NCBI GenBank assembly: GCA_000004695.1
Contig: CM000152.2
Span: 2,400,001 to 2,464,000 of the forward strand
Reading direction: 5' to 3'
Origin: Dictyostelium discoideum
Lineage: Eukaryota
Length of the DNA stretch: 64,000 nucleotides
Of the stretch, positions 39,153-42,513 are shown piece after piece. The notes under the pieces were generated by a model. The model made no database searches, had not been told where the DNA came from, and saw nothing but the letters and a program-made list of their open reading frames with translations. Position 1 is the stretch's first letter; every line of letters starts with the position of its first letter. The position numbers were made by a program, and so were the translations under genes.

Positions 39153-39524
39153 AATAAAAATAAAAATTAAAATTAAAAATCAAAATCAAAATTAAAATCA
39201 AAATCAAAATAAATAATTAAAATATTAAATTTAAAACTAGTTTCTTTTTTTTTTTTTTTATTATTTTTTTTATTTCTATTTTCAGATAATAGTTTATTTA
39301 AATAACGACGTTTTGAATTTTAATATCTTTTTATAATTTAAATATCTTTGCAAATGTTTTAATTAGGTGTTAAAAATAAAAAATAAAAATAAAAAAAGTA
39401 ATCATTGGGTGTAAAAATAGTTTTTTTTTTTTTTTTTTTTTTTCAAACATAAAAGAAATATTATTATTATATGGTTAAAAATAATAAAATAAAATATTAA
39501 GGATTTAAAAAACCTATTTCAAAA

Positions 39525-40220
39525 ATGGATAATAATAAAAAAATTAGAGCAATTATTACTGGTGCAAGTGGAATGATTGGTGAAGGTGTTGTACAAAATG
39601 CAATTGAAAGTGATGAAGTTGAAAAGATATTAATTGTTGGTAGAAGAGAATCTGGATTTAAGAATGAAAAAGTTAAAGAAATTTTACATAATGATTTTTT
39701 AGATTTAACAAATATTCAAAATGAATTCATTGGATATAATTCAGTATACTTTTGTGCTGGTGTTTCATCAGTTGGATTGAATAGAGAAACTTATGAAAAA
39801 TTAACAGTTGATATGCCAATGGAAATGTTAAAAAAATTTGAAATTGTAAATAATATGAAATCAAAGGATGATAATGATTGTACATTCATTTATATAACAT
39901 CGGCATTAACAAATTCCGATTCTTGGTTAATGTGGTCACAAGTTAAAGCAAAAGCAGAGAATCAAATTATATCTTCAAATTTCAATAAAACATTTGCATT
40001 CCGCCCAGCATGGATACAACCAAATATACCAGGTTTAAAAAATGCATATAAAACCTATAAATACATAAGTTGGATGTATCCAATTGGCCGATCAATCACT
40101 CAAAATGGATTTGTTACTTTAAGAGAGTTAAGCAGAGCAATGATACATGCTTCAATAAATGGTTATAATTCAAATATAATTCATGGTAGTGATATGGTTA
40201 AATTATCTCTAATTAAATAA
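39525..40220 (+). CDS. NAD(P)-binding Rossmann-fold protein (atypical short-chain dehydrogenase / NmrA-like), paralog A
   Basis: The N-terminal KIRAIITGASGMIGEGVVQ is a G-x-x-G-x-x-G dinucleotide-binding motif. Single exon, 231 aa. Confidence 0.65.
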   Translation: MDNNKKIRAIITGASGMIGEGVVQNAIESDEVEKILIVGRRESGFKNEKVKEILHNDFLDLTNIQNEFIGYNSVYFCAGVSSVGLNRETYEKLTVDMPMEMLKKFEIVNNMKSKDDNDCTFIYITSALTNSDSWLMWSQVKAKAENQIISSNFNKTFAFRPAWIQPNIPGLKNAYKTYKYISWMYPIGRSITQNGFVTLRELSRAMIHASINGYNSNIIHGSDMVKLSLIK

Positions 40221-40245
40221 TAATAAAAATAAAAATAATAATAAT

Positions 40246-40283
<38 letters not shown>

Positions 40284-40623
40284 GATTTTGATTTTGATGG
40301 GTTTTGAAAAATTTATCACCCCACACTCACCACAGGGGTTAAATTTGTAATTTGCCAAACAAAAATAATTAAATTAAATTAAATTGAAAAAAAATGAAAA
40401 AAATTAAATTAAAAAAAGAAGGAAAAAAAAAAAACAAAAAAAAAAAAATTGAATATAAATACAATTTTTTTTAATTATTTTGATTATTAAATTAAAAATT
40501 TTTTTAACAAAATTCCAACCAAATAAAAAGTTCCCTTAATGAATTTTTTCAAAAAATTATGTAGGATTTTGTTTTTTTTTTGTTTTAAATATTGGTTAAA
40601 AAAAAAAAAAGTAAACCCGGGAA

Positions 40624-40691
<68 letters not shown>

Positions 40692-41421
40692 GAATGAAAT
40701 AATTAGAACTGATAGTGATTTTAACCAAAGTATTACACTTCAAGAATTAATTGCAGATTTAAAAAATAAAAAAGCCAAAAATCCAGTTGGAACTGCTGTA
40801 GCTGTTTTTAGAGATGCTGACAAAAATAAAAATGGCAAATTAAGTAAGTTTTAAAATAATTGGAATTGTTTAAAAAAAAATAAATAAATAAATAAATAAA
40901 TAATTAATATTAAATATTGATTTTTTAAATATAGCATATGAAGAAATAAGAAACTGGGCTATTACTAAAAACTCAAATGCTATTAATGATGCTCTTACCA
41001 AAGAAGTAAACGAAATTCTCTCACCAATGGATAAAGATAATGATGGTAATTTAACCGCTGGTGAAATGCTTGATTATTTTGTTAAACAAGGTTTAAAATT
41101 AAATGGTAAATAATAAATATTATAGTTGAATAAAAAAAAAAAAAAATTATTACTAATTTATATATATTTATATGTATATATTAAAAATATCAGATGCATG
41201 CGAAATGATCAAATCATATTTTGAACAAGTCGATAAAGATTCTGATGGTATTTTAACTGTTTGCGAACTTAAAAAGGTAATTTTAATTTAATTTTATTAC
41301 TACTATTATTTATTATTATTATTATTATTAATTATTTTAATATATTAATTTAATTTAATTTTTTTTTTTTTTTTTTAATTTTTAGTTCATTGGCGCTGAT
41401 TTACAAGTACCATCACAATAA
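40692..41421 (+). CDS. EF-hand Ca2+-binding protein, at least 4 coding exons (40692..40849, 40928..41100, 41191..41276, 41385..41421). The 5' end and start codon are not resolved
   Basis: Three EF-hand loops are encoded: DADKNKNGKLS, DKDNDGNLTAGE and DKDSDGILTVCE. The exons are separated by short introns with GTAAGT, GTAAAT and GTAATT donors and ...tatag/...atcag/...tttag acceptors, and the phases fit (1,1,0). A stop lies in frame immediately before 40692, so the ATG must be in an upstream mini-exon that I could not identify. Confidence 0.5.
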
Positions 41422-41694
41422 TGTTTTTATTATTATTTTTTTTTTTTTACTTTTGGACTTTATTTTTCTAAAATTAAATAATTATTAAAAATAAAAGTCT
41501 GATGTTTGATTACTCCAATAAACGCAACATGATGAAACTTATTTTTTCATTTGAATTAGCTGTAAAAAAAAAAATAAAAAAAAAAAGCAATTATTAGGTG
41601 TCAACCACAACTGTCCTAAAAAAAAATAAAAAAAAAATAAAATTAAAAATAAATTTTTTTTTTTTTTAGAACAAAATGGAATAAATAAATAGAA

Positions 41695-42513
41695 ATGAAT
41701 TTTTTAAAAAAAAGATATTTTATAATAATTTTAATCATATCATACATTATATATTTAAATAATATTGAAATAGAAGATAATATATTCAATATGGAGAATA
41801 ATCAAATTAATAACAATAACAATAATAGTAATAATAAAATTAGAGCAATTATTACTGGTGCAAGTGGAATGATTGGTGAAGGTGTTGTACAAAATGCAAT
41901 TGAAAGTGATGAAGTTGAAAAGATATTAATTGTTGGTAGAAGAGAATCTGGATTTAAGAATGAAAAAGTTAAAGAAATTTTACATAATGATCTTTCAAAT
42001 TTAACAAATATTCAAAATGAATTCATTGGATATAATTCAGTATACTTTTGTGCTGGTATATCGTCAGTTGGTGTTGATAATGAAACTTATCATAAAATAT
42101 CCTATGATATGCCAATGGAAATGTTAAGAAAAGTTGAACTTGTAAATAATATAAAATCAAAGGATGATAATAACTTTACCTTCATTTATGTTACAGGTAG
42201 TGGAACAAATGAAAACTCTTGGTCAAATTGGGCACGTGTAAAAGCTAAAACTGAAAATCATATTATAGCATCCAATTTCAATAAAACATTTGCATTCCGT
42301 CCTGGTTTCATTCAACCAAATATACCAGGTTTAAAAAATGCCTACAAAATGTATAAATATATTGGTTGGTTATATCCAATTGGTCGTTCAATCTCTCAAA
42401 ATGGATTCATTACACTAAGAGAAATAAGTCAAGCAATGGTAAAAGCTTCAACAAATGGTTATAAATCAAATATAATTAATGGTAGTGATATTGTTAAATT
42501 AGCTCGTTCATAA
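41695..42513 (+). CDS. NAD(P)-binding Rossmann-fold protein, paralog B. An N-terminal extension carries a hydrophobic segment and an Asn tract. Alternative start at ATG 41791
   Basis: About 75-80% amino-acid identity with paralog A over about 225 aa. The first ~230 nt of the shared region are almost identical at the DNA level. In-frame ATG at 41695 precedes FIIILIISYIIYL. Confidence 0.65.
   Translation: MNFLKKRYFIIILIISYIIYLNNIEIEDNIFNMENNQINNNNNNSNNKIRAIITGASGMIGEGVVQNAIESDEVEKILIVGRRESGFKNEKVKEILHNDLSNLTNIQNEFIGYNSVYFCAGISSVGVDNETYHKISYDMPMEMLRKVELVNNIKSKDDNNFTFIYVTGSGTNENSWSNWARVKAKTENHIIASNFNKTFAFRPGFIQPNIPGLKNAYKMYKYIGWLYPIGRSISQNGFITLREISQAMVKASTNGYKSNIINGSDIVKLARS

Follow-up and report, generated by a model that had tools for sequence, protein, structure and literature searches.

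Two tandem paralogs of Dictyostelium discoideum AX4, which encode TIP30-like NAD(P)-binding proteins of the atypical short-chain dehydrogenase/reductase (SDR) fold, have very likely experienced recurrent, lineage-specific interlocus gene conversion in the 5′ part of their coding regions. They are located in a 64,000-nucleotide stretch of contig CM000152.2 (NCBI GenBank assembly GCA_000004695.1, positions 2,400,001 to 2,464,000 of the forward strand), hereafter the window, and all AX4 positions given below are counted from its first letter. Copy A (DDB_G0294567) occupies 39525..40220 and copy B (DDB_G0279683) occupies 41695..42513, both on the plus strand and 2.3 kb apart in AX4, and the duplication that separates them is older than the speciation of the lineages compared here. 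The two proteins share 79.4% identity over 223 amino acids, in good agreement with the value of about 78% given in an earlier note on this locus. That note had interpreted the mosaic as the signature of recent conversion confined to the 5′ half with the Rossmann motif (GxxGxxG). The confinement is supported by the present analysis, but a single recent event is not, and conversion appears to have recurred in each lineage.

The mosaic structure of the pair is sharply delimited in AX4. No indels are present across the whole alignment of A and B, which contains 156 bp of exact identity (39540-39695 = 41836-41991, at an offset of 2296), then only three mismatches (39696, 39700, and 39702), and a second exact stretch of 59 bp (39703-39761 = 41999-42057). 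All three mismatches are nonsynonymous and fall in adjacent codons that read F-L-D in A and L-S-N in B. From 39762 to the stop codon, 96 of 456 bp differ (78.9% identity), and the highest density of differences is reached around 39894-39932 in A and 42190-42228 in B. Differences are thus far from uniformly spread (3/222 versus 96/456 bp): the probability that at most 3 of the 99 mismatches would fall within the first 222 bp is 6.4e-15 (hypergeometric), an exact run of at least 156 bp was obtained in none of 100,000 permutations, and the maximum chi-square method places the breakpoint at 39762. The per-segment comparison of substitution rates that had been proposed as a check (Nei-Gojobori, NG86) gave a synonymous divergence (dS) of 0 in the 5′ segment, with no change at 44 synonymous sites, and of 0.53 in the 3′ segment, where the nonsynonymous divergence (dN) was 0.18 and the ratio of the two (omega) was 0.34. 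Several details of the earlier description needed to be adjusted. The identity tract is real, but it measures 156 rather than 159 bp and had been placed 2-6 nt away from its true position; the intervals 39543-39701 and 41837-41995, taken literally (offset 2294), differ at 118 of 159 positions. The mismatch patch and the renewed identity beyond it were also found as described, except that the latter extends over 59 rather than 57 exact bp, and the downstream divergence is genuine but amounts to 21% instead of about 25%.

The homogenised tract corresponds to 39540..39761 in A and 41836..42057 in B (both plus strand; 3 of 222 positions in B are unlike A) and encodes the region from the first β-strand (β1, with the glycine motif TGASGMIG) through β4 and the residues CAG. 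Mapped onto the AlphaFold model of B, the 3′ end of the tract falls at G121/I122, directly past β4 and CAG. The diverged 3′ segment (39762..40217 in A and 42058..42510 in B, both plus strand) covers the protein from the helix after β4 to the C-terminus, including the helix with the WxxVK motif, and shows orthologous evolution. At its 5′ limit, the tract is bordered by an Asn-rich codon repeat (AAT/AAC; 41797..41835 on the plus strand in B, with 39531-39539 as the counterpart in A), whose length differs among copies and strains in the alignment. This repeat joins the N-terminal extension of B and its residue M33 to the Rossmann domain and is disordered in the AlphaFold model, where the per-residue confidence (pLDDT) is below 50 at residues 41-45. 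Over the AT-rich background, homology between the two copies could be detected by blastn from about 39529 to about 40274, approximately from the start codon of A to 55 bp beyond the stop codons, which implies that the flanks have not been co-homogenised. A search of the window revealed two copies in total and no third copy that might have served as a donor.

To place the mosaic in an evolutionary context, eight genomes from at least four species were compared: AX4, D. firmibasis (L001), D. citrinum (L002), D. dimigraforme (L006), D. discoideum FIW (L004) and FIR (L005), and D. cf. discoideum FIY (L003) and FIZ (L007). The core alignment comprised 666 shared, gapless nucleotides in 16 sequences and was divided into a 5′ segment of 216 nt (39546-39761) and a 3′ segment of 450 nt (39762-40211). 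The question of whether related species have one or two copies received a clear answer, as both copies are present in the same order in all eight genomes and are flanked in each by the same genes, upstream by a large RhoGEF/ArfGAP gene and downstream by one on the minus strand, and the tree of the 3′ segment follows orthology whereas that of the 5′ segment follows species. In the 3′ segment, orthologs (A-A and B-B) are 10-15% apart between species and A and B differ by 18-25%; the neighbour-joining (NJ) tree separates all A from all B sequences with 100% bootstrap. In the 5′ segment, the same split received 0% bootstrap. Orthologs there differ by 5-11% between species, and the within-genome distance between A and B is 0% in FIY, 1.4% in AX4 and FIW, 1.9% in FIZ, 2.8% in D. 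dimigraforme, 3.2% in FIR, 5.6% in D. citrinum, and 7.9% in D. firmibasis. Paralogs were paired by species with bootstrap values of 94 for D. dimigraforme, 87 for D. citrinum, and 98 for FIY, and paralog grouping reached 82 for the D. discoideum complex and 48 for D. firmibasis.

The conflict between the two segments is equally evident from individual sites. When site patterns were counted over the four species, the ratio of fixed paralog-specific sites to species-specific sites common to both paralogs was 2:17 in the 5′ segment and 24:9 in the 3′ segment (Fisher P = 2.8e-5). Likewise, the ratio of private states found in both paralogs to those found in only one was 16:20 in the 5′ segment versus 9:116 in the 3′ segment. 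Since purifying selection cannot create lineage-private substitutions in both copies, these sites argue for recurrent conversion specific to each lineage. The extent of the tract also varies. In FIY, A and B are 100% identical throughout, including the patch that differs in AX4, and both copies carry a private GAT>AAT change; B thus has the A-type patch together with the private change, which is indirect evidence that indicates a transfer from A to B. In D. dimigraforme, copy B has A-type residues (VSSVGL) about 20 nt past the usual boundary. Such differences in tract extent show that the events in these lineages were independent.

Three other explanations of this pattern were weighed. Reciprocal unequal crossing-over would produce a hybrid gene in a three- or one-copy array, with later loss or gain restoring two copies, and the spacer between A and B is indeed unstable, ranging from 475 to 2032 bp with deletions in the intervening EF-hand gene that differ among strains. 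Nevertheless, each event would call for at least two rearrangements, repeated in four lineages, and every time exactly two copies would have to be restored with the A-type and B-type 3′ halves and the flanks intact; genomes with three copies or one copy were found in 0 of 8 cases. The patch retained within the tract and the short overwrite in FIY are also better suited to short non-reciprocal tracts, and crossing-over is therefore regarded as improbable. A different view would dispense with conversion altogether and assume that the 5′ segment, including its synonymous sites, is under far stronger purifying selection, for instance due to an embedded RNA or DNA element or to translational constraints near the start. 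It is true that the ortholog dS is 0.11-0.26 in the tract and 0.39-0.56 downstream, roughly half (with small site numbers), and that the fold is most conserved in the part specified by the 5′ segment. However, constraint can yield neither the 17 derived species-specific sites that are common to both paralogs, and that occur in every lineage, nor a tree arranged by species; moreover, orthologs are 5-11% apart in this segment while the AX4 paralogs differ at the patch alone, which is the reverse of what constraint predicts. This makes such an explanation very improbable.

Least credible of all is an assembly artefact, in which the AX4 reference would owe its identity tract to reads of one paralog that were collapsed onto the other or wrongly polished. 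No specific support for it was found, although near-identical repeats are known to be risky in AT-rich Dictyostelium assemblies. The same tract with the same three differences in the patch is present in the independent assemblies FIW, FIR, and FIZ, a second D. discoideum assembly encodes proteins that match A and B exactly (KAM9949440 and KAM9949442), and other species have homologous yet lineage-specific tracts. As a collapse cannot recur across independent assemblies, this concern, which had been raised together with the original observation, can be set aside with near certainty, and conversion is preferred.

The most likely course of events is the following. The duplication took place before D. 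discoideum, D. citrinum, D. dimigraforme, and D. firmibasis diverged from one another. Thereafter, the coding region common to both copies was very probably homogenised repeatedly over its first ~220 bp, which extend from the Asn-codon repeat to the end of β4 and encode the dinucleotide-binding core, by non-reciprocal homologous recombination between the copies, independently in each lineage. The other ~456 bp were spared and evolve orthologously, with faster amino acid divergence between the paralogs. In the 3′ segment, omega is 0.26-0.37 between paralogs and 0.10-0.17 between orthologs, a two- to threefold excess that is consistent with functional divergence in this part of the protein. Such divergence might both select against conversion and lower the homology that conversion needs, and the 3′ boundary is presumably held by sequence divergence, selection, or both.

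Several considerations weigh against this interpretation. The tree of the 5′ segment rests on few sites (216 nt), and the D. firmibasis paralogs, at 7.9% distance, are paired at only 48% bootstrap. Recombination is deduced from sequence patterns. The 3′ boundary that is common to most species could partly reflect one ancestral mosaic. No signature of GC-biased conversion was found either, as the GC content at third codon positions is 0.07-0.15 in the tract, against a higher 0.14-0.25 downstream. In addition, the halved ortholog dS of the tract leaves room for extra constraint or a lower mutation input, which may add to the similarity of the copies, and retention of the mismatch patch may stem from patchy mismatch repair or from a barrier formed by clustered mismatches.

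The mismatch patch itself is an ancient paralog-specific island. It is represented by TTT TTA GAT (F-L-D) at 39696..39704 in A and by CTT TCA AAT (L-S-N, residues L100-S101-N102) at 41992..42000 in B, both on the plus strand. The island lies in the loop that directly follows β3 (residues 92-96) in the AlphaFold model of B, whose mean pLDDT is 90.4. The only fixed differences between A and B in the tract are core positions 150 and 154 (39696/39700 in A and 41992/41996 in B): in seven of the eight genomes, the residues there are F-L in A and L-S in B, with FIY, whose B island has been overwritten by the A type, as the sole exception. Bacterial homologs mostly have D/N-F-x-D at this position, so the A-type island resembles the bacterial consensus and, judged from the sequences, the B type is the derived state. 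In all four species, shared private substitutions flank the island on both sides. Expressed as core positions upstream and downstream of it, these are 138 and 165 in D. discoideum; 32, 74, 89, and 104 versus 167 in D. citrinum; 68, 92, 95, and 137 versus 182 and 190 in D. dimigraforme; and 11 and 20 versus 202 in D. firmibasis. Because the tract past the island is only 59 bp long, a separate conversion of that piece alone in four lineages seems unlikely.

Why the island has been retained is a matter of interpretation. We lean slightly towards the view that selection removes alleles with a converted island, as its retention suggests. In enzymes of the SDR fold, the adenine of the cofactor is contacted by an acidic residue and the hydrophobic residue after it, and the island presumably sits at this site. 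On this basis, a broader scenario may be put forward tentatively, and with somewhat less confidence than its opposite: homogenisation and divergent selection might have reached a settlement at two codons, in a recently acquired, bacterial-derived pair that shares a cofactor module evolving in concert and whose members differ in cofactor handling, A being soluble and B being membrane-anchored and induced by Gram-positive bacteria.

Both copies are assigned to Pfam Epimerase (PF01370) with 28.5 bits for A and 28.7 bits for B against a cutoff of 20.9, and they fall just under the threshold of NAD_binding_10 (PF13460; 25.8 and 26.7 versus 27.2), whereas an NCBIfam search returned no meaningful family. 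The glycine motif TGASGMIG (TGxxGxxG) is present, and its Gly residues are invariant in the family. The AlphaFold model shows alternating β and α elements in Rossmann-type order. Among PDB sequences, human TIP30/HTATIP2 gave the best match (E = 1e-5); by fold, the proteins are most similar to TIP30 (2bka and 2fmu) and PA4017 (2a35), with a Foldseek E of 2e-11 and a TM score of 0.76 normalised to the target; all of these share a single-domain Rossmann fold of about 220-240 amino acids with TGxxGxxG. The identity to TIP30 is only about 16%, and TIP30 has Tyr in Y-x-x-V-K where the present family has an invariant Trp. Indeed, the catalytic YxxxK motif was not found, and W-x-x-V-K occupies the aligned position (39933-39947 in A and 42229-42243 in B). 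This Trp is invariant in an alignment of 14 sequences and is present in at least 90% of 49 sequences, bacterial members included. The replacement of the catalytic Tyr by Trp is the reason why the family is filed here as atypical SDR.

The closest relatives found outside Dictyostelium are bacterial. Bacterial genomes yielded at least 579 relatives, with the best matches in soil Bacteroidota (38-47% identity), including Pedobacter, Mucilaginibacter, Chitinophaga, Larkinella, and Dyadobacter. The bacterial homologs compared, mainly from soil Bacteroidota, are uncharacterised NAD(P)-binding proteins that some sources name 'YbjT (DUF2867 family)' or 'nucleoside-diphosphate-sugar epimerase'; they align over their full length at 35-47% identity and have the same invariant residues, and the next matches after the Dictyostelium proteins (35-47% identity) are situated in compact bacterial gene neighbourhoods. 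Unlike them, the Dictyostelium copies have a 7-residue insertion (VNNxKSK) and an Asn-rich N-terminus, and copy B also has a hydrophobic N-terminal helix. The protein search revealed no eukaryotic homologs beyond the D. discoideum clade. Considering the bacterial relatives, the lack of other eukaryotic members, and the absence of introns, horizontal acquisition from bacteria (Bacteroidota-like) by the ancestor of the D. discoideum clade is a good candidate explanation for the origin of these genes. No literature on horizontal transfer of this enzyme family was found.

Copy A is an intronless coding sequence for 231 amino acids without the N-terminal extension and matches XP_001134566/Q1ZXH6 exactly. 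Copy B is also intronless; its curated model has 272 amino acids (XP_641598/Q54WF5), and a newer automatic annotation of D. discoideum starts it at M33 (ATG 41791-41793, homologous to the ATG of A), giving 240 amino acids (KAM9949442). The B-specific N-terminal extension is encoded by 41695..41790 (plus strand; 32 codons, MNFLKKRYFIIILIISYIIYLNNIEIEDNIFN) and resembles a signal anchor or a transmembrane helix. The in-frame extension with the hydrophobic stretch FIIILIISYIIYL, which had been noticed in B and is absent from A, was thereby confirmed. Its ATG, frame, and 99-nt length (including M33) are kept in all eight genomes, and copy A begins at the homolog of M33 in all eight. The extension contains a basic KKR followed by YFIIILIISYIIYL, with Kyte-Doolittle values of 1.88 (19-residue window) and 2.96 (13-residue window), and substitutions in the hydrophobic core are either I/V exchanges or synonymous. 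In the AlphaFold model, a helix spans residues 2-40, and a disordered poly-Asn linker leads to the Rossmann domain. In agreement with these features, DDB_G0279683 is termed a 'putative transmembrane protein' in a table reproduced in the supplement of PMC7078664.

In six genomes, the extension has 91-99% nucleotide identity to AX4 without indels, and the 120 nt upstream of it have only 61-70% identity between species; the extension is thus conserved like coding sequence, far above the upstream DNA. The idea that it is hyper-conserved at the nucleotide level was dropped, as its divergence of 2-9% compares with 6.5-7.4% between B copies and AX4 B in the 5′ segment. Translation from 41695 and membrane anchoring of B are probable in view of these features, and in-frame conservation in eight genomes supports the suggestion, made on sequence grounds, that A and B may differ in localisation. 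A sequence upstream of A in D. citrinum (L002 5938-6000) reads ATATCATATCATATT, compared with AATCATATCATACATT in B; it has no ATG, and tblastn aligns B to it from residue 3. It may be a relic of an ancestral duplicate with the extension or a product of lineage-specific conversion from B to A. A remnant of this kind was not seen upstream of A in the other species compared. In FIY, an A-run frameshift lies between the ATG of copy A and KIRAIITG (L003 5939-5980), and the annotation begins the protein within the glycine motif; the frameshift is either a mutation that disables the gene or an assembly error in the homopolymer. The window has about 20% GC, with homopolymer runs and Asn-rich open reading frames, and long T runs occur on either side of copy A (39421-39444 and 40248-40276).

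The spacer between A and B contains an EF-hand gene on the plus strand. Its existence had been reported correctly, but it has five annotated exons rather than four, the first of which is defective or non-canonical in AX4. Exons 2-5 (40693-40843, 40935-41105, 41194-41276, and 41386-41421) are separated by three GT-AG introns and encode three EF-hand loops (DADKNKNGKL, DKDNDGNL, and DKDSDGIL), with Pfam scores that all exceed the cutoffs (EF-hand_1 56.7 bits, EF-hand_6 56.4, EF-hand_7 56.0, and EF-hand_5 51.3). The annotated AX4 exon 1 (40539-40571, plus strand, MNFFKKLCRIL) has a non-canonical TT donor, and splicing it to exons 2-5 gives exactly the annotated protein of 157 amino acids (P0061). 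An ancestral exon 1 with the sequence M[AS]L[YH]EISQKI[NS]DD[IV] was found in D. citrinum, D. dimigraforme, and FIZ. Its relic in AX4 (approximately 40530-40570) has no ATG and contains an in-frame TAG, and the annotated exon 1 overlaps it in another frame; an alternative in-frame AX4 exon 1 would extend over 40539-40610, with the donor GTAAAC. The first intron of the gene includes a T homopolymer run of about 63 nt (40627-40689). The resemblance between MNFFKK (40539-40556) and the start of copy B, MNFLKK (41695-41712), in the shared sequence ATGAATTTTTT[C/A]AAAAAA was considered and rejected as a chance likeness in DNA of low complexity, since the EF-hand version arises when the ancestral exon 1 (LYEISQKI) is read out of frame.

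The EF-hand gene is young, lineage-restricted, and decaying within the D. discoideum complex. FIY lacks exons 1-2, FIW retains no more than part of exon 2, and FIR retains exon 4 alone; no EF-hand trace is present in the D. firmibasis spacer, and the protein database yielded just four homologs, all of them at this locus. The absence from D. firmibasis fits either a later insertion or a loss, the rooting of the four species being ambiguous in the trees. Fused gene models have also been produced at this locus: an obsolete AX4 record of 370 amino acids (UPI00004E2C38; P0005) joins copy A up to 'HGSDM' to EF-hand exons 2-5, and a similar fusion of 301 amino acids (P0014) exists in the FIY annotation.

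Partial interlocus conversion of tandem duplicates is a known process, classical examples being the 5′ tract of the human Gγ- and Aγ-globin genes, RHD/RHCE, and the red/green opsins. The Dictyostelium pair shares with them a sharp-edged tract, identical at synonymous sites, inside otherwise diverged tandem paralogs, grouping by species within the tract and orthology outside, and a simple-sequence repeat at one edge. It differs from them in that an intronless, apparently bacterial-derived enzyme gene is affected in an amoebozoan with ~22% GC, and in that the tract is short (222 bp), lacks GC bias, and contains a two-site island that has survived in at least four species. In the same group of organisms, mosaicism and intermingled paralogs were reported for the tgrB1/tgrB2 kin-recognition cluster, where conversion was proposed to create diversity under diversifying selection (bioRxiv 10.1101/2025.10.22.684067). 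Unlike in the tgr genes, conversion between A and B keeps a conserved cofactor-binding module uniform within an array of two genes. The gene identifiers of A and B were found in one paper only, and no literature on conversion at this locus was found; a known kind of process, recurrent partial conversion, is thus described here for a previously undescribed gene pair.

The paper in question lists copy B (DDB_G0279683) among the genes induced by B. subtilis and does not list copy A (PMC7078664). The primers of its quantitative reverse-transcription PCR assay (marker B7) match both paralogs perfectly and yield an amplicon of 111 bp (39547-39657 in A and 41843-41953 in B), and as this amplicon falls completely within the identity tract, A and B are not distinguished by the assay. 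More generally, the 5′ 222 bp are not paralog-specific, and short RNA-seq reads from this region will map to multiple positions. The present results also suggest corrections of gene models, as the long N-terminus of B is backed by conservation and the EF-hand gene of AX4 has a non-canonical first intron.

With regard to the biology of Dictyostelium, the locus is a candidate case of gene transfer from a bacterium to an amoeba, followed by duplication and divergence of the copies. To our knowledge, Spo11 is absent from Dictyostelium, and we are aware of little information on ectopic recombination in this organism. The gene pair provides a compact and well-resolved example of partial concerted evolution, which may be used for the analysis of tract length, homology barriers, and selection against conversion in Dictyostelium.

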